A stretch of 63,483 nt of DNA, counting the filler, from Deltaproteobacteria bacterium (GTDB lineage Bacteria; JAUYMQ01), in NCBI GenBank assembly GCA_030698575.1. It is 10 parts of 10 records of this genome, joined end to end, with 100 filler letters (N's around TTAATTAATTAA, not from the genome) between each part and the next. Parts side by side here need not be neighbours in the genome. Positions count along the whole stretch, not along the records: positions 16,310 to 37,931 come from JAUYMQ010000169.1; 9 more parts are not named here. One strand, written 5' to 3'. Shown here piece by piece: positions 8,250 through 38,231 of this stretch. The position numbers and the translations under genes are program-made. The notes under the pieces are model-generated. The model had not been told where the DNA came from. It was given only the letters and a program-made list of their open reading frames with translations, and made no database searches. Position 1 is the first letter of the stretch. Each line of letters begins with the position of its first letter.

Positions 8250-8349
8250 NNNNNNNNNNNNNNNNNNNNNNNNNNNNNNNNNNNNNNNNNNNNTTAATTA
8301 ATTAANNNNNNNNNNNNNNNNNNNNNNNNNNNNNNNNNNNNNNNNNNNN
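8250..8349. other. Artificial contig spacer. Identical spacers at 12957-13056, 16210-16309, 37932-38031, 43326-43425, 47054-47153, 50382-50481, 57438-57537 and 60645-60744
   Basis: 100-nt block of N runs flanking TTAATTAATTAA (stop codons in all six frames), repeated nine times. Confidence 0.99.
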
Positions 8350-12956: not shown

Positions 12957-13057
12957 NNNNNNNNNNNNNNNNNNNNNNNNNNNNNNNNNNNNNNNNNNNN
13001 TTAATTAATTAANNNNNNNNNNNNNNNNNNNNNNNNNNNNNNNNNNNNNNNNNNNNG

Positions 13058-16209: not shown

Positions 16210-16309
16210 NNNNNNNNNNNNNNNNNNNNNNNNNNNNNNNNNNNNNNNNNNNNTTAATTAATTAANNNNNNNNNNNNNNNNNNNNNNNNNNNNNNNNNNN
16301 NNNNNNNNN

Positions 16310-16388
16310 CGATGGTCGCAATCGGCATGGCCCTGCTCCCTCGTCCGCGGGGCGGCTGGCTACAGGTCGTTCCGATCCTCGGCGAAGG
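16310..16388. repeat. 79-bp exact direct repeat, second copy at 16908-16986 (598-bp period)
   Basis: cgatggtcgcaatcggcatggccc...ccgatcctcggcgaagg occurs at both positions. Confidence 0.95.
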
Positions 16389-16926
16389 TCTCGAGGTCGG
16401 CGAGCCGGGCCATCGTGCCGTCCTCGTTCATGATCTCGCAGATGATGCTCGAGGGGTGAAGCCCCGCCAGGCGCGAGAGATCGACGCCCCCCTCGGTCTG
16501 CCCCGTCCGCGCCAGCACGCCGCCCGGCCGCGCGATGAGCGGAAATACATGGCCCGGCGTCTTGAGATCCTCGGGACCCGATTGCTCGTCGATGGCGGTG
16601 AGGATGGTGCGGCAGCGGTCGGCGGCCGAAACCCCCGTGGTGACGCCGCGCCTGGCGTCGATGGAGGTGGTGAAAGCGGTGCTGAGAGGGGCGGTGTTCT
16701 CGGAGGCCATGTAGGCGAGGCCGAGCCGGCGGGCAGCGTCTTCCGTGATCGGGAGGCAGATGAGGCCGCGTCCGTACTTCGCCATGAAGGCGATCGCCTC
16801 GGGAGTGCACTTCTCGGCCGCCATGCAGAGATCGCCTTCGTTCTCGCGATCCTCCGCGTCCATGACGACGATCATCTTCCCTGCGCGGATATCCTGGATG
16901 GCTTCTTCGATGGTCGCAATCGGCAT
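16360..16926 (-). CDS. ribB: 3,4-dihydroxy-2-butanone 4-phosphate synthase (RibB or RibBA N-terminal part) with a chimeric, truncated C-terminus
   Basis: [31 protein letters not shown] and [12 protein letters not shown] motifs. It ends FAEDRNDL, the same end as the upstream gene, because of the repeat. Confidence 0.88.
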
Positions 16927-16957
16927 GGCCCTGCTCCCTCGTCCGCGGGGCGGCTGG

Positions 16958-17524
16958 CTACAGGTCGTTCCGATCCTCGGCGAAGGGGCGGAGCATCTGG
17001 CTGCGGGATTTGTGGCGGAGCTTGCGGAGCGCCTTGGCCTCGATCTGGCGCACGCGTTCGCGGGTGACGCCGAGCATGAAGCCGACTTCCTCGAGCGTGT
17101 GGTTCCCCATCTCGTAGCCGACCCAGGCGCAGTTGTTGTAGTACATGTTGCGCACGAACCAGCGGCAGACCGTGCGGTCGCAGACGTCGGGGGGATAGCC
17201 GTCGAGGCCGCGCTCGCATCGCATGAGCGGGATCTTCCGGTCGGAGAGCTTGGCGACCATCTTCTTCACCCGCGCGGTCTTGGGCGGTCCCCACACGCGG
17301 AAGAAGTACGCGCCGCTGCCCTCGCCTGCCGCCGGCGCCGCACCTGAACCCTGCTTGCGCGCCCGGTTGTGGCTGTTGCCCTTCTGGGCGCCCGCCTTGG
17401 CGGCGTCTGTACTCTTGGATTTCTTGGACGGCACGCTCTTGCCCCTCCGCCTTCCCCCGCTGGGCCGCGGGGGGTTGCCCTTCGTCAGCATTTTCTTGAG
17501 GCGGTCAAGATAGGATATTCGCAT
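16958..17524 (-). CDS. Stand-alone sigma70 region-4 protein with a Cys4 motif and basic low-complexity N-terminus (188 aa)
   Basis: C-terminus [39 protein letters not shown] closely resembles RpoD region 4.2; preceded by C-x11-C-x4-C-x11-C; no region 2 or 3. Start codon uncertain. Confidence 0.8.
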
Positions 17525-18554
17525 GGCGCCCGTAAGCCCCTCGATCAGGCCCCTTCTCGTAGCGCGCAAGCACGCGCTGGCAGACCCGGCGCATCGCCTC
17601 GCGCGCTGAGAGGGGCTCGATAATCTCCGCCGCGGGCCCGTAGGGGAGCAGCCAGCGGACCACCCAGGCTTCCGAGCGCGCCCGCCGCGTGACCACCAGC
17701 GCGCCTCCAGGTTCGCGCTCCAGTTCCGCGTCGGCGCATCGCGCCTCGACGAAACGCGCCATCTCCGGTGAAAATCGAACGCGCACCGTGACATCGCCCG
17801 GGGCCGGCACGTACACCGGGCCCTCGCGGTAGCGGGAGGCGTCGAAGCGCTCACTGATCTCGAAGCGTTCACCGGTCGGCCGCGCCTCGCGCACGCGTGA
17901 GATGCGGAAGGTGCGCGTGTCGCCGCGAAGGTGGCACCAGGCCGCGCAGTACCAGGCTCCGCCGACATTCCAGAGCAGGTAGGGATCGATGCGCCGGGTC
18001 GTGATCATTTCACCCGCGTCGGCGAGGTAGTCGATCTCTATCCGCTCACGCTCCGCGCGCGCGCGTTCGACCGTGCGGAAGATCTCCGAAATCCCCTCCC
18101 GCTGGAACGCGAACGCACGCTCGAGATCGGCGAGCTGCCCGCGCTGCCCCGCGCTCGTGGCTTCGCGCACCTTGTCGATCGCCTTGGCCAACGCCGGGCT
18201 CACGGTGTACCCCTCCGCCCGGAGGAGATCGGCGCCCACGAGGAGCGCGAAAGCCTGCCGCGCGCTGAGCCGGATCGGGCGCTTCACGGCCGGCTCGATG
18301 TCCATCCCCACGTACCCGTCCTCGATGTATGCGTCGATGAGCTGGTGCGGCTCCAGGACGTCGTCGCCGAGCGTGGCAATGCGATCGATCGCCGCGACGA
18401 CCTCCTCGGGCGCCAGGTGAAAGCGCGCGGCGACTTCCTCCATCGGCACGCGGCCGTTCTCGTAGAGGTAGGGGATCATCGTAAGGAAGCGCTCGAGATC
18501 CTCCTGGGAGCCCGCGCGCTCGCGGCTTGGCGGTTTTCGGGCGGAGGCGCTCAT
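17505..18554 (-). CDS. WYL-domain transcriptional regulator, PafC-like
   Basis: N-terminal wHTH ([11 protein letters not shown]...EEVAARF); WYL domain (RRIDPY...[21 protein letters not shown]); WCX-like tail ([14 protein letters not shown]). Confidence 0.88.
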
Positions 18555-19570
18555 CGGGCATCCTCCCCGGCGTGAAGCGCCAGCGCGCCGCGCACGCGCC
18601 CGGTGAGCGAGCGGACCAGCGACGCGGGTTTGACGATCACGGCCTCGGGGCCGAAGGCGAGCACCCAGTCGACGAGCGCCTCGGGGTTCGACGCCGAGAC
18701 GGTAAGACGACCGCCGCCTCCCGGCAGCGACTCGAACTTGCCGAGCCCCTCATGGCTCTTCTCGATCTGCCAGGCCACCGTCGGCGTGAAATCGATCTGC
18801 ACCGCCCGGGCAGCGCCGCCGTCCCAGAGCCAGGGGGGCGGCACGCGGTGCCCGCGAAGATCGAAGTCCTGCGGCAGCTCGAAGTCGGGGCGGGAGGCGT
18901 TGCGCGGGTTCACCTGCACGTCGCGGAAGCGCTCGACCAGAAAAGTCCGCTCGGCTTTCCGCAGGTGGCACCATCCGATGACCGACCAGTGCCCCGATCG
19001 GTAGACGAGCCCGTAAGGGTTGATGGCGCGGTCGGCGACGCGGTCGCTATGCAGCGTGTGGTAGCGGCACCGGAGCGTCTTGCGGCGTTCGATCCCGTCG
19101 TAGATGCGCGCCAGCCATTCGCGCTGCTCGGGATTGGAGGCCTCGTCGGGCATTCGCACAAACGGCGCGCCGGCGGCTCCCTCCTCGGGATCGACCTGCC
19201 GGTCGTAGAGGATCTTGCGCAGCGCCTCGTCGGTCTGCCGCGCGAGCGGGAAATGATCGATCTGCCGCGCGACGCGCGAGAGGAGCGCGAGCGCCAGCAC
19301 CTCATCTTCCTCGAGATCGATCGGTGGGAGGAAGGATTCCTCGGCGTCGATGCGGTAGGCGGACGACTCGGTCTCCTCGTCGCGGACCACCTCGACGGCG
19401 ATGCCGAGCTGGCGCAGCGTGTCCTTGTCGCGCTCGAACTTGCGCCGGCTAGACTCCTCGTTCTCGGCCTGGTAGTCGGGAAAGGTCTCCCGCAGCTCGC
19501 CGAGGGTCACGGGGCGTGCCCCGGCCATGAGGAAGTAGACGAGTTCGAGCAGGCGCTGGGTGCGGTTCAT
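18551..19570 (-). CDS. WYL-domain transcriptional regulator, PafB-like
   Basis: MNRTQRLLELV...RRKFERDKDTLRQLGI matches the PafB N-terminus; WYL domain (INPYGL...WSVIGWCHLRKAERTFLVERF); 4-nt overlap with the pafC-like gene. Confidence 0.88.
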   Translation of the reverse strand: MNRTQRLLELVYFLMAGARPVTLGELRETFPDYQAENEESSRRKFERDKDTLRQLGIAVEVVRDEETESSAYRIDAEESFLPPIDLEEDEVLALALLSRVARQIDHFPLARQTDEALRKILYDRQVDPEEGAAGAPFVRMPDEASNPEQREWLARIYDGIERRKTLRCRYHTLHSDRVADRAINPYGLVYRSGHWSVIGWCHLRKAERTFLVERFRDVQVNPRNASRPDFELPQDFDLRGHRVPPPWLWDGGAARAVQIDFTPTVAWQIEKSHEGLGKFESLPGGGGRLTVSASNPEALVDWVLAFGPEAVIVKPASLVRSLTGRVRGALALHAGEDAR

Positions 19571-19655
19571 GGGTGGCGGGGCTCCCGGCCCTCGAAGGGA
19601 AAGCACTAAAACGGAAAAGCGGGGCGCCGCCCGGCCAGGCGCGGCATTCCCCAAG

Positions 19656-19685
19656 ATACTACGTGCTATCACGGCCCTGTGACAG
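19656..19685 (-). promoter_or_regulatory. Candidate promoter/operator of the WYL operon
   Basis: Minus strand CTGTCA-N18-TAGTAT, overlapped by the imperfect palindrome TATCAC-N6-GTGACA (19667-19684). Confidence 0.35.
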
Positions 19686-19696
19686 CCCCCGCCGCC

Positions 19697-19739
19697 GGGG
19701 GACTGGTTCGTCGGGCCTCCGGCCCTCCTCGCAATGACA
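19697..19739. repeat. REP-like palindromic element, half copy
   Basis: ggggactggttcgtcgg...cctcgcaatgaca; related to the copies at 25782, 33932 and 43233. Confidence 0.75.
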
Positions 19740-19847
19740 TGCGGGGGCCGGCCCCAGGCCCGACGCGCAGTCGCATTGCCCGCGAGGCCGTGATTGAGGT
19801 AAATTCGGGGCGCTCTCTCAAGGGGACCGGGAGCAGAAAAGGGAGCA

Positions 19848-20666
19848 ATGCAGCCGTTCAAGGTGGTGACCTTCAACATCCTCGGCGAATGGGACGAACG
19901 GGAAGGCGCGGCCTGGGAGGAGCGCGAGGCCGGCGTCGCCGCGACGATCCAGGATGCAGGTCCCGATCTCGTGGGCCTGCAGGAGGTCACCTATAACCAG
20001 CGGGCCGCTCTCGACGTCCGGCTGGCCGTCCTTCGTCGGGTTCCCCTCCTGGAGCATGCGCGCCAGATCATTCCGCACACCGATGATCCCCTGAACACCA
20101 TTCTCTACAATCCCGAGCGGTTCCGCCTGGAAGAGCACGGCGTTTTCTGGCTCGGCCTCGACCCCGCCCGCCCCAGCCGCGACTGGGAAGCGGCCTTCCC
20201 CCGATGCGCGGCCTGGGCGCGCATGGTGGATCTCACCGATCGATCGCCGCTACTCTTCGTCTCGACTCATTTCGATCACGACTCGCTGCTGGCCCGCAGC
20301 GAAAGCGCCGAGCTCATTCTCGGTTTCCTTGAACGGCGGGCTCCCCGCGGTGCGGACACGACGCCCGCGATCGTCGTGGGGGATTTCAACTCCGACGCCT
20401 CGCTTGATCTCCACCGCCGCATGAAGCAGGGACCGCCGCCCCTCCTCGACGCCTGGGAGGAGACGAACGGCGGCCCGGGCGCGCCCTACGAGGACGGCAC
20501 CTATCACGACTTCACGGGAAAGGCCCTCACCGAGGTGGGACGGATCGACTGGATTTTCTTCAGCGGCCCACTAAGGCCCGTAGTCGTGCGGCGCATTGAG
20601 GCGGGCATCGGCGGGCGGTACCCGAGCGACCACTTCCCTCTCGCGGCAACGTTCCGCCGCGCCTGA
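19848..20666 (+). CDS. Endonuclease/exonuclease/phosphatase (EEP) family protein
   Basis: VTFNI, GLQEV, STHFD, GDFNS, RIDWIF and PSDHFP motifs. Confidence 0.9.
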   Translation: MQPFKVVTFNILGEWDEREGAAWEEREAGVAATIQDAGPDLVGLQEVTYNQRAALDVRLAVLRRVPLLEHARQIIPHTDDPLNTILYNPERFRLEEHGVFWLGLDPARPSRDWEAAFPRCAAWARMVDLTDRSPLLFVSTHFDHDSLLARSESAELILGFLERRAPRGADTTPAIVVGDFNSDASLDLHRRMKQGPPPLLDAWEETNGGPGAPYEDGTYHDFTGKALTEVGRIDWIFFSGPLRPVVVRRIEAGIGGRYPSDHFPLAATFRRA

Positions 20667-20693
20667 ACCGCGCCCCATCGGGCGGCGCGACTC

Positions 20694-21941
20694 TCAGTCG
20701 GAGAGCCGCGAGCGCCGCTGCGCCCGCAGGTGCTCGTACAGATCCTGCACGATGAGCCGCACCTTCTCAGCAAGCCGCGAGACGATCTCCTCGTCTTCCG
20801 CCGCCTCCGGCGGGTAGTCGGCTGTCGAGATGGGTTTCCCGAAGTCGATGAAGCACTTGACGGGCGGCGGCACGAGGCCCAGCAAGCCGAGCCAGGGGAA
20901 GGTGGGCGTGATCGGCAGATCGGGCAGGCCGAGCCGTTGCGCGAGCCCGGTCAGGTTGAACAGCACCGGGTGGAGCTCCTCGAACCCCTGCACCGCCACC
21001 GGGACGATGGGCGTCCCCGTCAGAATTGCGATGCGGGCAAACCCGCGCGTGAATGTTCCGACGCGCATCCGCTCCCGGAAGGGCTTCAGCGCCCCCTTCG
21101 CGCCTTCCGGAAACACCAGCACCGCCTCCTCTCGCTGAAGCAGCCTGAGCGCGTTCTCCGGGCATCCGTACACCTGGCCCGTGCGCGCGAAAAAAACGTT
21201 CAGTCCGGGAATCTTCGTCGTGAAGCGATCCACCAGCGCCCGCACCTCGCGCCGGGCGGGATGCTCCGTCTGCACGGCCACCTCGATCATCGCCGCGTCG
21301 AGCACCATCCAGTTCGCATGGTTCGACACCAGGAGCGTCCGCCCCGTGGAGGGGACGTGTTCGAGACCGCGGGTCTCCACACGGAGCCACTTCCGGTAGA
21401 TCAGTTCGAAGAAGCGCTGGACGGCCGCCTCGTAGCCGGCGTCGCGGCCAAAGTCGTCGATCTCGGGCTCGAGGTCGTGAGGCACGAGCCCGAACCGGCG
21501 GGCGATGCGCTCGACGCGGGTCTCGGTCAGCCGCGGGCGCTTGACGGGAAAGAGCTTGTAGTCGGGCTGCAGCGGCGGCACCGGCGATTCGACCCAGGGC
21601 TTCCGCCCTTCCTCTTGCCCGCTGCGAAGCTTCAGCGCGTGACGGCCCCGATCCCAGAGCCCTGCCATGTTGAGCGATCCGTCCGCGCGGACGATCGGCC
21701 GGAGCGCGGGCACCGGCGGCGCATGAGAAGCGTCGCTTTCCGGTGACGGCGAGAGCAATGCGCCAGCTTCCTCAGCGGCGGCCGCGGGTGCGGCGGTCCC
21801 GGCCGCAACGGCAGCAGCGCTCGCCGGCGCTGCGTAGATCCGCGCCGCGCGCACGTAGGCGTTCATCCCCCCGCTGCGATCGAATGGATCGTCACCGAGG
21901 ATCTCCCCGGCGTTGTTGCGAGTGAACTCTCGGGTTTTCAT
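20694..21941 (-). CDS. Lysophospholipid/glycerol acyltransferase (PlsC-like) with N-terminal extension
   Basis: LLVSNHANWMVLD, VFPEG, GFARIA...PIVPV and DDFGRD motifs. Start codon uncertain. Confidence 0.8.
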   Translation of the reverse strand: MKTREFTRNNAGEILGDDPFDRSGGMNAYVRAARIYAAPASAAAVAAGTAAPAAAAEEAGALLSPSPESDASHAPPVPALRPIVRADGSLNMAGLWDRGRHALKLRSGQEEGRKPWVESPVPPLQPDYKLFPVKRPRLTETRVERIARRFGLVPHDLEPEIDDFGRDAGYEAAVQRFFELIYRKWLRVETRGLEHVPSTGRTLLVSNHANWMVLDAAMIEVAVQTEHPARREVRALVDRFTTKIPGLNVFFARTGQVYGCPENALRLLQREEAVLVFPEGAKGALKPFRERMRVGTFTRGFARIAILTGTPIVPVAVQGFEELHPVLFNLTGLAQRLGLPDLPITPTFPWLGLLGLVPPPVKCFIDFGKPISTADYPPEAAEDEEIVSRLAEKVRLIVQDLYEHLRAQRRSRLSD

Positions 21942-22385
21942 GATCGGTCCGGGCGCGCAAGTTTGCGCCAGCAGGGAACGACGCAGCGGGGATCAACGCG
22001 ACGACGCGTCGCGCGCGGCGATCCCGGGACGGCCGCGTAGCGCTTCGAAAATCGGTGCAAGATTGGTACCAGTCGAGGAGGCGAGGAGTCCGGTGTCATC
22101 CATCCTAGCAGTGTTCCCTTCCCTGTAAAGCTGAAAAGCGCCGCGCCGTGCAGTATCGCGGCGCGCTGCCCCCCGGGACGGCGCCGCCTCCAGTGACACC
22201 GCAATGCGCCGGTGCGAGGGCGCCGGCGCAGTTACGAAATTGTGACGCCGGATTACAGAAATCAGCGTCGCCGCGGGGCCTTCTCGCCGCCCTGTCCGGC
22301 GATGTTTATCCGCGCCGGCCCTTTTTCCCTTCAAATCCGCGCCTCTGCGAAACCGCTGCAAGACCGACGACGGGGTTCCCCCTCA

Positions 22386-22401
22386 CGGCACGCCGGTTGC
22401 A
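22386..22401 (+). promoter_or_regulatory. Sigma54 (-24/-12) promoter upstream of the S8 protease
   Basis: CGGCACGCCGGTTGCA versus consensus TGGCACGNNNNTTGCW; about 90 bp before the ATG. Confidence 0.7.
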
Positions 22402-22490
22402 CAACCCTTTCCTGACTTTCGTCCGGAAACCCATAGCTCCCGCGCTACGCGAGCGCGCCCGGCAGTCGCCGGGATGGGACAGGAGAGGGA

Positions 22491-24707
22491 ATGCACCCGA
22501 GATCACGCCGCACGCACACCGCTGTCCTGGTTCGCCTCGTCGTCTGCGCGCTCTTCCTGGGCGTCGCTCCCTTCGCGTTTCCGGTCTCCGTCGAGGCGAG
22601 ACAGCGCGTGGAGATTCCCGATCGGCTGATCCTGCAGGTCCGTCCCGGCGCGCTGGCGGCCGACGTGCAGGGGGAGATCAACGGGCAGGGCGGCCGTGTT
22701 GTCGGGCGCAGCGATCAGATCGGGATCCTGGTCGTCGAGATGCCGAAGGGACACGGACCTTCGGCCCGGGCGTTGCTCGCGCGCAGCAAGCGGTTCAAGT
22801 TCGTCGAACCCGATGCGCTGCTCGAACCCACATTCGTGCCCAACGATCCCAACGTCGCGAACGCCTGGCACCTCGGCGTGATGGATCTCTTCACCGCGTG
22901 GAACACGACCCAGGGATCGGCCAGCACGCCGATCGCCATTCTCGACAGCGGCGTCGACCCGACGCACCCCGATCTGGCGTCGAAGCTGGTTCCGGGACGG
23001 AATACCTACGAGAACAACTCGAACACGACCGACCTGACGGGCCACGGCACGAGCGTTGCCGGAAGCGCGGCCGCCATCGGGAACAACGGGCTCGGCGTGG
23101 TGGGCGTGGCCTACGCCAATCCCATCATGCCCATTCGCGTCACCAACGCGAACGGCTGGGGCGTCTCCTCGGCGATCGTGAGCGGTCTCACGTGGGCGGC
23201 GGACAACGGCGCCAGGGTCGCGAACCTCTCCTTCGCGGGAATGCATTCGTCGTCGTCCATCGGCGCCGCGGCCCAGTATTTCAGGAGCAAGGGGGGGATC
23301 GTCACCGCGTCGGCGGGCAACTACGGGACGGATGACGGCATGCCGGAGAACTCGAACATCCTCTCCGTCTCGGCCACCGGAAGCAACGACGTGATCGCCT
23401 CCTGGTCGAGCTTCGGGAGCTACGTCGACGTTTCCGCGCCGGGGTCCGGCATCTGGGCGACGACCAACGGGGGGGGCTACGGAGCGGTTTCGGGAACTTC
23501 GTTCTCAGCGCCGGTCGCAGCGGGCGTGGTGGCGCTCATCTTCGCCGTCAATCCCGCCCTCACGCCCCAGGCAGCCGAACTAATTCTCGAGCAGAGCGCC
23601 GATGATCTGGGAACGGCGGGCTACGACACGAAGTACGGCTGGGGAAGGGTGAACGCCGGCACCGCGGTGTTCAACGCCGGCGGTGGTGTGCCGCCGCCGC
23701 CGCCCGATACGACGGCGCCCGTGACCACGATCACTGCGCCCGCGCACGGCGCGGTCGTCACCGGAAACGTTGCGATCTCGGCAACGGCGGTCGATGCCGT
23801 GGGTGTCACCGAGGTCCGCTTCTACGCCGACGGGCAGCTCCTCGCGGTGGACACCACCTCGCCCTACAGCGCGCTCTGGAACAGCGCCGCCACCACGGAC
23901 GGCGGGCACCAGCTCCTCGCCGAGGGTTACGACGCCGCCCAGAACCGGGGGAGTTCGCAGACGGTTTCGGTGAACGTGCAGAACACGGTTCCCGACACCA
24001 CCCCTCCGTCCGTGCAGATCAACAACCCCTCAAGCGGCAGCGTGCTCTCCGGAACCGTCCAGATCGCGGCGGCCGGGAGCGACAATGACGCCGTCGCCGA
24101 GATCCAGATTTATGTCAACGGCGAGATGAGCTGGTCCGGGCCGGGGAGCAGCCTGGTCGTCAACACCGACACCACGGGAACGCCTGACGGGTCCTACCAG
24201 CTCCAGGCCCGGGCGCTCGATCCCGCCGGGAACGTCGGTGTGTCGGGCATGGTGTCGGTGACGGTGTCGAACGCGGCGCCCCCGCCACCTCCACCGCCTC
24301 CACCTCCGCCGCCGCCGCCCGGGGAGCCCACGGTGATTTTCCTCACGCCCCTGGACGGCGACTCGGTGCACCCGCGGAAGCAGACCTTCACGGTGGATGC
24401 CTCGAGCCCGAACGGGGTGAGCTACGTGCAGTTCCTCGTCGACGGGGTAGCGCAGAAGAAGAAAGACACGAGCGCGCCCTACGCACTGCTCTTGGCGACC
24501 AGCAAGTGGAGCGCCGGCACGCATGTCATCACCGCGGTTGCCGTCGACAAAGCGGGACAGATGGCGGAAGCGTCGATCACCATCACACGGCCGCTCTCGC
24601 TGAAAGAAATCCAGAACGAGCTCAAGAAACAGCAGAAGCTTCTGGAGAAGCTCGCGAAGGAGGCCGCCAAGGCGGCGAAGGAGCAAGAGGAGGCCGGGAG
24701 CGGTTAG
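22491..24707 (+). CDS. Secreted subtilisin-family (S8) serine protease with three Ig-like (Big) domains
   Basis: Signal peptide; catalytic triad AILDSG / GHGT / GTSFSAP; DTTAP and DTTPP Ig-domain starts; poly-Pro linkers. Confidence 0.93.
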   Translation: MHPRSRRTHTAVLVRLVVCALFLGVAPFAFPVSVEARQRVEIPDRLILQVRPGALAADVQGEINGQGGRVVGRSDQIGILVVEMPKGHGPSARALLARSKRFKFVEPDALLEPTFVPNDPNVANAWHLGVMDLFTAWNTTQGSASTPIAILDSGVDPTHPDLASKLVPGRNTYENNSNTTDLTGHGTSVAGSAAAIGNNGLGVVGVAYANPIMPIRVTNANGWGVSSAIVSGLTWAADNGARVANLSFAGMHSSSSIGAAAQYFRSKGGIVTASAGNYGTDDGMPENSNILSVSATGSNDVIASWSSFGSYVDVSAPGSGIWATTNGGGYGAVSGTSFSAPVAAGVVALIFAVNPALTPQAAELILEQSADDLGTAGYDTKYGWGRVNAGTAVFNAGGGVPPPPPDTTAPVTTITAPAHGAVVTGNVAISATAVDAVGVTEVRFYADGQLLAVDTTSPYSALWNSAATTDGGHQLLAEGYDAAQNRGSSQTVSVNVQNTVPDTTPPSVQINNPSSGSVLSGTVQIAAAGSDNDAVAEIQIYVNGEMSWSGPGSSLVVNTDTTGTPDGSYQLQARALDPAGNVGVSGMVSVTVSNAAPPPPPPPPPPPPPPGEPTVIFLTPLDGDSVHPRKQTFTVDASSPNGVSYVQFLVDGVAQKKKDTSAPYALLLATSKWSAGTHVITAVAVDKAGQMAEASITITRPLSLKEIQNELKKQQKLLEKLAKEAAKAAKEQEEAGSG

Positions 24708-37931: not shown

Positions 37932-38231
37932 NNNNNNNNNNNNNNNNNNNNNNNNNNNNNNNNNNNNNNNNNNNNTTAATTAATTAANNNNNNNNNNNNN
38001 NNNNNNNNNNNNNNNNNNNNNNNNNNNNNNNTTTAGCCCTGATAAATGAAAGTTCATTGAGGCTTAAAGCTTCCGAACGGTCAAAAAACCTCCACAGCTT
38101 TCCCGCCCCCTGCCGAGGGGGGTGGTTTTCCCTCATGATTCCGCGCGTCTCTCCGATAGGTACATCTCGAGGGGATGCTCCCGGAAATCTTTCCGAGGAC
38201 CGGCATCCGCCCTCTGAAGGGCGCCCTTTCC

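Follow-up and report, generated by a model that had tools for sequence, protein, structure and literature searches.

What does a free copy of the end of a housekeeping sigma factor do when it is encoded next to an activator of the type that docks onto that same part of sigma? The question is raised by three genes in a stretch of 63,483 nucleotides (nt) from a Deltaproteobacteria bacterium (GenBank assembly GCA_030698575.1; JAUYMQ01), the whole of which is called the window here and sets the numbering. The three genes of the initial annotation are confirmed by open reading frame (ORF) calls and Pfam, and all lie on the minus strand: a pafB-like gene (18551-19570), a pafC-like gene (17505-18554), and a small gene (16958-17434) for a protein with sigma-70 region 4. 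We consider the trio to be genuine and under strong constraint, a variant of PafBC that has apparently not been described before and for which a three-component mechanism is plausible on the sequences at hand. What the sequences show is gene content, homology, residue conservation, purifying selection and adjacency, whereas the sensing of single-stranded DNA, the contact of the small protein with PafC and the direction of its effect on activation are inferred.

The window consists of ten contigs joined by spacers of the form N44-TTAATTAATTAA-N44 (8250-8349, 12957-13056, 16210-16309, 37932-38031 and five others), and gene order across the joints therefore carries no meaning. The trio is found at the left end of a single contig (JAUYMQ010000169.1, 16310-37931; 21,622 nt), whose other genes include those for TonB, a TonB-dependent receptor, MreB and enolase. 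The TonB and TonB-dependent receptor genes mark the host as diderm, in keeping with the Gram-negative lineage first assumed, and database labels on proteins of close relatives read 'Myxococcota bacterium' and 'Deltaproteobacteria bacterium RBG_13_65_10'. It is well supported that the trio is a chromosomal module of an uncultured diderm lineage, made up of a PafB/PafC-type WYL heterodimer and the small protein. The absence of Pup ligase and proteasome genes, first remarked on for the adjacent genes, extends to the rest of the 21.6-kb contig, where none is among the 17 proteins scanned.

The PafB/PafC pair and the small protein

The pafB-like gene encodes a helix-turn-helix (HTH)-WYL-WCX protein of 339 amino acids (aa; Pfam WYL 67.9 bits, WCX 43.2 bits), and the pafC-like gene an HTH_PafC-WYL-WCX protein of 349 aa (HTH_PafC 78.8 bits against a cut-off of 32, WYL 73.2 bits, WCX 59.7 bits). 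Two adjacent paralogues, each with WYL and WCX and the second with HTH_PafC, make up the architecture of PafBC. The first protein matches Mycobacterium smegmatis PafB (7p5x_AY) over its full length at E 3.7e-19 and PafC only at 9.3e-5; it also matches the N-terminal half of the Arthrobacter aurescens PafBC (6sj9), and its HTH aligns with solved PafB from residue 2. The second matches the C-terminal half of 6sj9 (E 2.7e-28) and PafC (7p5x_AX, E 3.5e-18), and PafB only at 3.4e-5. These reciprocal best matches to the solved mycobacterial chains uphold the assignment as a PafBC-like WYL pair.

Several residues with known roles are kept. In mycobacteria, PafB R46 and R50 (with K52, R56 and Y76) read a GTC element and the PafB HTH reads the -26 element, according to the accessible part of PMC8635444. 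Each of the 23 aligned sequences has R50, K52 and Y76; 22 also have R46, for which one distant sequence has Lys, and R56 is kept within the close clade. The PafB arginine patch for single-stranded DNA (ssDNA), R181/R204/R208, is kept throughout the clade, and the equivalent of PafC D62 is Asp in 12 of 14 close-clade sequences and Gln in the other two.

The small protein, 158 aa from a GTG at 17434 or 188 aa from an ATG at 17524, has a well-supported layout: a disordered basic tail, a helical segment specific to its subfamily, a four-Cys motif, and the HTH of sigma-70 domain 4, which is nearly the same as in primary sigma factors. Pfam Sigma70_r4 is matched at 46.1 bits (cut-off 24.1), by residues 141-171 only and at profile positions 20-50 of 50. 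In NCBIfam there are 28 matches, each far below its cut-off and all confined to the C-terminus. The NCBIfam and PDB matches correspond to the last 43-48 residues of primary sigma factors (residues 141-184 of the small protein) and include the whole recognition helix (TRER(V/I)...). Identity to solved RpoD/SigA chains is 57-73% over the last ~45 residues, the tail 'RSQML(R/K)PFAED' mirrors the RpoD C-terminus, and the equivalent of SigA R442 is present. Scores are 48-54 bits against E. coli-type RpoD and 39 bits against mycobacterial SigA; because it is closer to the former, the small protein was not co-inherited with actinobacterial PafBC.

A search of 5.8 billion clustered proteins gave 16 full-length relatives of 63-91% identity, and the other 104 listed matches were primary-sigma fragments or other short sigma-4 proteins, aligned over the C-terminal part only. 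The 43 residues G136-L178 are identical in all 17 sequences, and C103, C115, C120 and C132 are invariant. Between loci, up to 20 of the 129 nt that encode this block differ, and every difference is synonymous, with no amino-acid change: the block is under purifying selection. The Cys residues follow the pattern C-x11-C-x4-C-x11-C, which is probably a zinc site. An rpoD pseudogene fragment is ruled out by the purifying selection and by a Cys motif common to the whole family. An ECF or other sigma factor is likewise ruled out, region 2 being absent and Sigma70_r4 the only domain found with Pfam and NCBIfam; the small protein cannot be a sigma factor because it lacks regions 1-3.

The AlphaFold model, built on a 39-sequence alignment, has a mean pLDDT of 68.9, with residues 40-150 mostly at 74-85 and residues 1-29 below 50. 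It comprises two N-terminal helices, a mostly non-helical stretch that bears the Cys residues, and three helices of sigma region 4.2. In most top Foldseek rows the last 42-53 modelled residues superpose on sigma domain 4 at a root-mean-square deviation of 1.6-3 A. All fold matches of the C-terminus were to sigma domain 4 or to HTH domains in general. Residues 30-100 gave no informative fold match (Foldseek, 0 rows at E <= 0.001; wide VIA search, best Z 3.5), and this is no evidence of a new fold.

What precedes the HTH bears on one possible role. The small protein might be a surrogate for sigma domain 4 on the beta-flap, as part of a split or exchanged sigma, and offer PafBC a dedicated dock, so acting as a co-activator that aids a PafB without the mycobacterial W70. 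A weak HMMER alignment of residues 86-107 with the helices of region 4.1 points to a complete domain 4 into which a Cys loop is inserted, and phage T4 gp33 is a trans-acting substitute for sigma domain 4. However, region 4.1, which accounts for much of the contact with the flap, shows poor conservation or gives way to the Cys motif; two alignments conflict, one having the Cys segment replace region 4.1 and the other having it inserted after region 4.1, and the model shows only short helices there. In addition, a free domain 4 would lose out to that of the housekeeping sigma, which is tethered, and no partner with sigma region 2 is encoded nearby. We regard the surrogate role as very unlikely.

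Linkage, gene starts and downstream sequence

Close relatives of the trio were found in six metagenome loci (L003-L008). Among 185,579 species, represented by one genome each, a scan turned up no close relative and only two weak matches from outside the family. In all seven loci, the window included, pafC lies directly upstream of the small gene on the same strand; the adjacency originally noted is thus kept in 7/7 loci, all from one narrow uncultured clade. None of the six metagenome loci has a member of the linked subfamily without pafC upstream. In the four loci that extend far enough, pafB precedes pafC, and in two loci the pair is fused into a single ORF (L005:1500-3644, 714 aa; L008:4599-6734, 711 aa). 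PafB, PafC and the flanking genes are 54-70% identical between loci, and the clade sizes for the three proteins are similar (16, 14 and 11 clusters among the 5.8 billion proteins). The linked subfamily is also marked by an extra conserved N-terminal segment (AAPAAGE..YF.RVWG..KT.RV), which is missing from the wider family described below.

The three genes had been described as overlapping consecutively. The 4-nt overlap of pafB and pafC (18551-18554) stands, and the start column of the pafB-like gene is common to L005 and L008, which use GTG and TTG. The 20-nt overlap of pafC with the small gene requires the doubtful ATG at 17524. The sequences favour the GTG at 17434, which leaves a 70-nt spacer after the pafC stop (17435-17504, minus strand) that would be an N-terminal extension if ATG 17524 were used. 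The matching 'MPSKK' is the start of five homologues (P0002, P0005-P0008), the small gene of L004-L008 starts 45-46 residues ahead of the conserved core, and GGAGG is found 9 nt upstream of the GTG. Furthermore, run X1 contains a nearly identical strain in which 5 nt, a tandem TTGAC as read on the coding strand, are inserted behind 17503, just past the pafC stop; the single contig that covers the site is 768 nt long, with two other differences. The insertion lies between ATG 17524 and GTG 17434; it would frameshift the long form and leave the GTG form intact. Against the GTG start, a long N-terminus ('MR[IL]SYL..') is in frame in four sequences (P0001, P0003/L003 and P0004).

Pattern scans for sigma-70 promoters and for terminators gave no match between the three genes, and RNA folds of the spacers between pafC and the small gene were non-significant (z -0.6, -0.7, +0.4 and, for the window spacer, -1.66). 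The regions upstream of pafB in three loci have no clear common motif. Near-identical pieces of the locus occur in runs from groundwater (X1, X2) and from an aquatic source (X3), and in X15, an estuary metatranscriptome. The near-identical contigs of the last cover parts of pafB (160 nt), pafC (151 nt) and the junction of the small gene with ribB (185 nt); coming from an RNA library, they are a weak hint of expression and no proof of transcription or of a joint transcript.

The trio was said to be followed by ribB, and a ribB gene for DHBP synthase does begin 31 nt past the small gene (16360-16926, minus strand), across a junction confirmed by an X1 contig (520 nt, 0 differences, 16501-17020). 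The copy is truncated, however: it covers only positions 1-178 of the 191 in PF00926 and sits at the end of the contig, where a 79-nt repeat is found. An internal copy of this repeat (16908-16986) spans the 3' end of the small gene, the spacer and the first 19 nt of ribB, and a terminal copy at the contig end (16310-16388) is a direct repeat of 100% identity at a spacing of 598 nt. The last nine codons of ribB, its stop and the sequence to the contig end fall within the repeat, through which the ribB C-terminus FAEDRNDL (eight residues) and stop are those of the small protein. Identity to the RibBA of L006 is 77% up to residue 182, with divergence thereafter. The internal copy is the natural one, because homologues of the small protein share the tail PFAEDRNDL; the repeat points to either a 598-nt tandem duplication or an assembly loop.

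Downstream order varies among the loci: in the window, ribB comes straight after the small gene, in L006 a CigR-like gene stands between the small gene and ribBA, and in L007 a CigR-like gene is followed by the contig end. The CigR-family-like small genes (L006:2140-2625 and L007:1071-1523, both minus strand; 46.9 and 34.2 bits against a cut-off of 78) are absent from the window. Neither an FMN riboswitch nor any other Rfam family reached its gathering score in 16310-22500 or in L003, L006 and L007. A sub-threshold match to V_AS9, a Vibrio antisense RNA, at 16726-16834 (plus strand, antisense to ribB; 38.3 bits against a gathering score of 50) probably just reflects conserved ribB coding sequence. 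Elsewhere on the contig, a secreted subtilase (22491-24707, plus strand) has three Big_7 Ig-like domains and a run of ~14 prolines, without evident link to the trio.

A possible decoy for PafC, and the alternatives

By homology with actinobacterial PafBC, the pair would detect ssDNA through the arginine patch of the PafB WYL domain; the PafB HTH would read a promoter element, and the PafC HTH would dock onto domain 4 of the housekeeping sigma ('sigma adaptation'). The contact between the PafC HTH and sigma domain 4, a premise of the initial annotation, is borne out by the accessible part of PMC8635444, where the HTH of mycobacterial PafC contacts R416, R442 and S446 on the face of SigA domain 4 that reads DNA. 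The free small protein would display the same domain-4 surface, and the PafC HTH may bind it rather than the polymerase-bound sigma. PafBC would thereby be kept off RNA polymerase, or its response would be tuned or shut off. The small protein may thus compete for PafC with the sigma on the polymerase, as a decoy or anti-activator, a reading that we hold tentatively and at somewhat less than an even chance. It is the most economical one, because the R442-bearing recognition helix is free, frozen by selection and, in this lineage, always encoded beside pafC.

Several observations weigh against a decoy. The position of the PafB wing-tip Trp W70, which contacts RNA polymerase in mycobacteria (PMC8635444, accessible part), is T, S, A, R or L in 11 close-clade sequences and W in two of the 23 aligned. 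The Tyr of the PafB WYL motif (Y196) is replaced by S, T, A, L or V in the clade; in M. smegmatis, the Y196A change abolished ssDNA binding (PMC11804915, accessible part). With W70 and the WYL Tyr missing, the mycobacterial mechanism may not transfer unchanged. S446 of SigA, the partner of PafC D62, is Ala in the small protein, as in non-actinobacterial sigmas. The mycobacterial-type PafBC promoter motif (tGTCgg-N10-tA-N3-T) has 0 matches in the 63-kb window against 0.8 expected. Myxococcus xanthus is reported to have the order pafB-pafC-cyaA, without such a third gene (PMC9705874). In addition, the overlap of pafC with the small gene hinted at tightly coupled translation, but it probably stems from the choice of start codon.

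The upstream genes belong with these points. An EEP-family gene divergent from pafB (19848-20666, plus strand; Pfam Exo_endo_phos) recurs in L005 and L008 at 57% identity, and an acyltransferase gene (20694-21941, minus strand; Pfam Acyltransferase) recurs in L008 (62% identity) and partly in L005; the two are thus syntenic in 2/2 loci that reach them. The nearest solved chains to the EEP protein are uncharacterized proteins and a mannosyl-6-phosphatase, and it is therefore not evidently a DNA-repair enzyme. Given the narrow clade and the equal synteny of these unrelated genes, the adjacency of pafC and the small gene may be plain inheritance.

Taken to its end, this would mean that the small protein serves a purpose that has nothing to do with PafBC and that the trio is no functional unit. 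The seven loci belong to one clade at 54-70% identity, in which the order acyltransferase-EEP-pafB-pafC is conserved as well, and the lack of close relatives in the 185,579 species genomes leaves no independent lineage in which to test the linkage. Yet the small gene stays beside pafC despite the changed downstream order and two pafB-pafC fusions, and a subfamily member without an upstream pafC was seen in 0/6 metagenome loci. On balance, we think it quite unlikely that inherited gene order is the whole explanation.

The spacer ahead of the small gene also weighs against a decoy. In five of the seven loci (L004-L008) it measures ~115-125 nt and holds a conserved stretch, ~70-85 nt before the start of the small gene (e.g., L006:1470-1500), that consists of a T-run, a GC-rich palindrome (CCCCGGG..CCCGGGG) and AAAGTATGCTA. 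A long spacer with a conserved motif suggests that the small gene may have its own promoter; promoter scans, terminator scans and folding gave no support for the stretch as a control region.

Further evidence comes from a wider family. When 1.84 billion representatives were searched with a profile, one member of the linked subfamily was returned, together with about two dozen small proteins (84-202 aa, 63-99 bits) whose matches reach into the Cys region. The wider family includes P0195-P0216, P0218, P0245, P0250, P0280 and P0307 and, on viral contigs, L011:4995-5270 and L085:3962-4744. An alignment, A4, holds 26 sequences, 23 of the wider family and three of the linked subfamily; of 26 taken, P0211 (two tandem copies of the module) and P0229 and P0295 (RpoD-type, without the Cys motif) were dropped. 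All 26 share three of the Cys, the Asn and five residues of the HTH, and the first Cys and the Trp occur in at least 90%. The family signature, C-x(11-12)-C-x4-C-x-W-x8-N-C followed by TLEE[VI]G..G[VI][TS]RER[VI]RQIE, is also found in the small protein. Two other proteins, P0020 (138 aa) and P0046 (134 aa), have stand-alone canonical regions 4.1 and 4.2 with a C-terminal extension and no Cys motif, and by sequence are another kind of free sigma domain 4.

In a viral scan with the A4 profile, only L011 and L085 of the 80 loci kept extend into the Cys region. The L011 member lies beside an HU-like gene and the L085 member within a replication-like block, with no WYL gene in the stretch read of either contig. 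A degenerate DNA pattern for 'NCTWVAC' occurred at three viral loci, one of them the L011 contig and two without a family ORF of at least 60 aa. Among 401 genomes of one phylum, the profile found RpoD-type matches in 384 and no Cys4 member; the matches listed there cover the HTH part only (starting at model position 50-59) and are nearly all in RpoD-length frames. Atlas neighbours of one member are Sigma70_r4-only clusters, mostly labelled Thermodesulfobacteriota or Uroviricota, few records that serve as leads only. Since the wider family occurs without WYL neighbours, its basic function does not need PafBC, which again counts against a decoy.

An alternative is that the small protein is an autonomous DNA-binding regulator, whose HTH would bind -35-like (TTGACA-type) or similar operators and whose four Cys would act as a redox sensor or form a structural zinc site. 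It might act on promoters alone, to repress or retarget them, and could be an output or co-regulator of PafBC without touching PafBC. The sigma recognition helix is fully kept (TRER[VI]RQIE is nearly invariant in the 26 sequences), the basic N-terminal tail is typical of nucleic-acid binders, members occur in phage contigs and cellular clusters without WYL neighbours, and the spacer motif in 5/7 loci suggests a control region of its own. Operator binders drift, however, and a frozen 43-residue block of primary-sigma type better fits a surface for conserved protein partners; the N-terminal segment of the subfamily and the strict adjacency to pafC (7/7) would also go unexplained. An autonomous regulator is accordingly a serious alternative, albeit one that we judge somewhat unlikely.

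A role in anti-phage defence was considered as well. With PADLOC, only generic WYL models and the C-terminal end of MzaA were matched. Neither the EEP gene nor the acyltransferase gene had a match, and the trio fits no defence-system model with partner genes nearby. PHROGs gave generic WYL and sigma-tail matches only.

Building on the decoy, a broader proposal is that the small protein is a metal-bound, trans-acting copy of sigma domain 4 and a dedicated partner of PafBC. Sigma adaptation would then be a three-component switch in this lineage, in which one part senses ssDNA, one reads DNA and the third, a sigma-4 decoy or adaptor, can detach. The wider family, which is frequent in phage contigs and in clusters labelled Thermodesulfobacteriota, would be hitherto unrecognized sigma-4 mimics. 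As a whole, this proposal is unlikely, and we put it forward as speculation.

Known systems and significance

The actinobacterial PafBC proteins (M. smegmatis 7p5x/9fnd; the fused A. aurescens 6sj9) are the closest comparison. They share with the present pair the adjacent HTH-WYL-WCX paralogues with reciprocal full-length similarity, the DNA-reading Arg pair, the WYL arginine patch and PafC D62, and the natural B-C fusion of A. aurescens has its like in L005 and L008. On the other hand, the clade proteins are only ~30% identical to them, the host is diderm, pafA and proteasome genes are not nearby, W70 and the WYL Tyr are lost, no RDRM-type motif is found in the window, and there is an extra gene for a free sigma-4-like protein. 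We know of no such third gene in actinobacterial paf operons. Caulobacter DriD, as described in the accessible part of the literature, is likewise a WYL-domain, ssDNA-responsive activator in a SOS-independent damage response of a Gram-negative bacterium; however, it is a homodimer from one gene, whereas the trio encodes a heterodimer of PafB/PafC type with HTH_PafC and a third gene.

Other factors are directed at sigma domain 4. The WhiB-like proteins on SigA region 4 (WhiB1 6onu, WhiB3 8cwt, WhiB6 8d5v, WhiB7 7kug) also combine a small four-Cys module with sigma domain 4 to reprogram promoter use, but in that case the Cys4 (Fe-S) module and sigma domain 4 are separate proteins, whereas here they are one chain. 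The WhiB-like proteins themselves have no sequence or fold match to the small protein; matches are to the sigma chain only. Rsd and gp33 are further sigma-4-directed factors. In the 'sigma appropriation' of phage T4 by AsiA and MotA (PMC8635444, accessible part), the domain-4 surface of the housekeeping sigma is again central, and relatives of the small protein do occur in phage contigs; AsiA and MotA bind or remodel domain 4, whereas the small protein imitates it, and there is no sequence similarity. Compared with RpoD/SigA domain 4 itself, the last ~45 residues of the small protein have the same fold, but regions 1-3 are lacking, and the Cys motif either takes the place of region 4.1 or breaks it up.

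The arrangement had not been recognized as described, and a PafBC pair with a region-4 protein was indeed not found in searches of the literature. The searches likewise returned no published description of a Cys4 plus sigma-4 family, and no dedicated protein antagonist or partner of PafBC came up in the literature consulted, as far as its accessible parts extend.

Finally, PafBC is the model system of sigma adaptation, where the activator inserts itself between the promoter and domain 4 of sigma, and a free, frozen copy of a sigma domain beside pafC is a concrete candidate for an antagonist or partner of PafBC. If the trio functions as proposed, it would illustrate how a PafBC-type damage response operates outside Actinobacteria. 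If the small protein and its wider family are mimics, they would represent a new control of promoter choice, which imitates a part of sigma instead of binding sigma, and cells and phages would use such mimics to divert regulators, or -35 elements, from the housekeeping holoenzyme.

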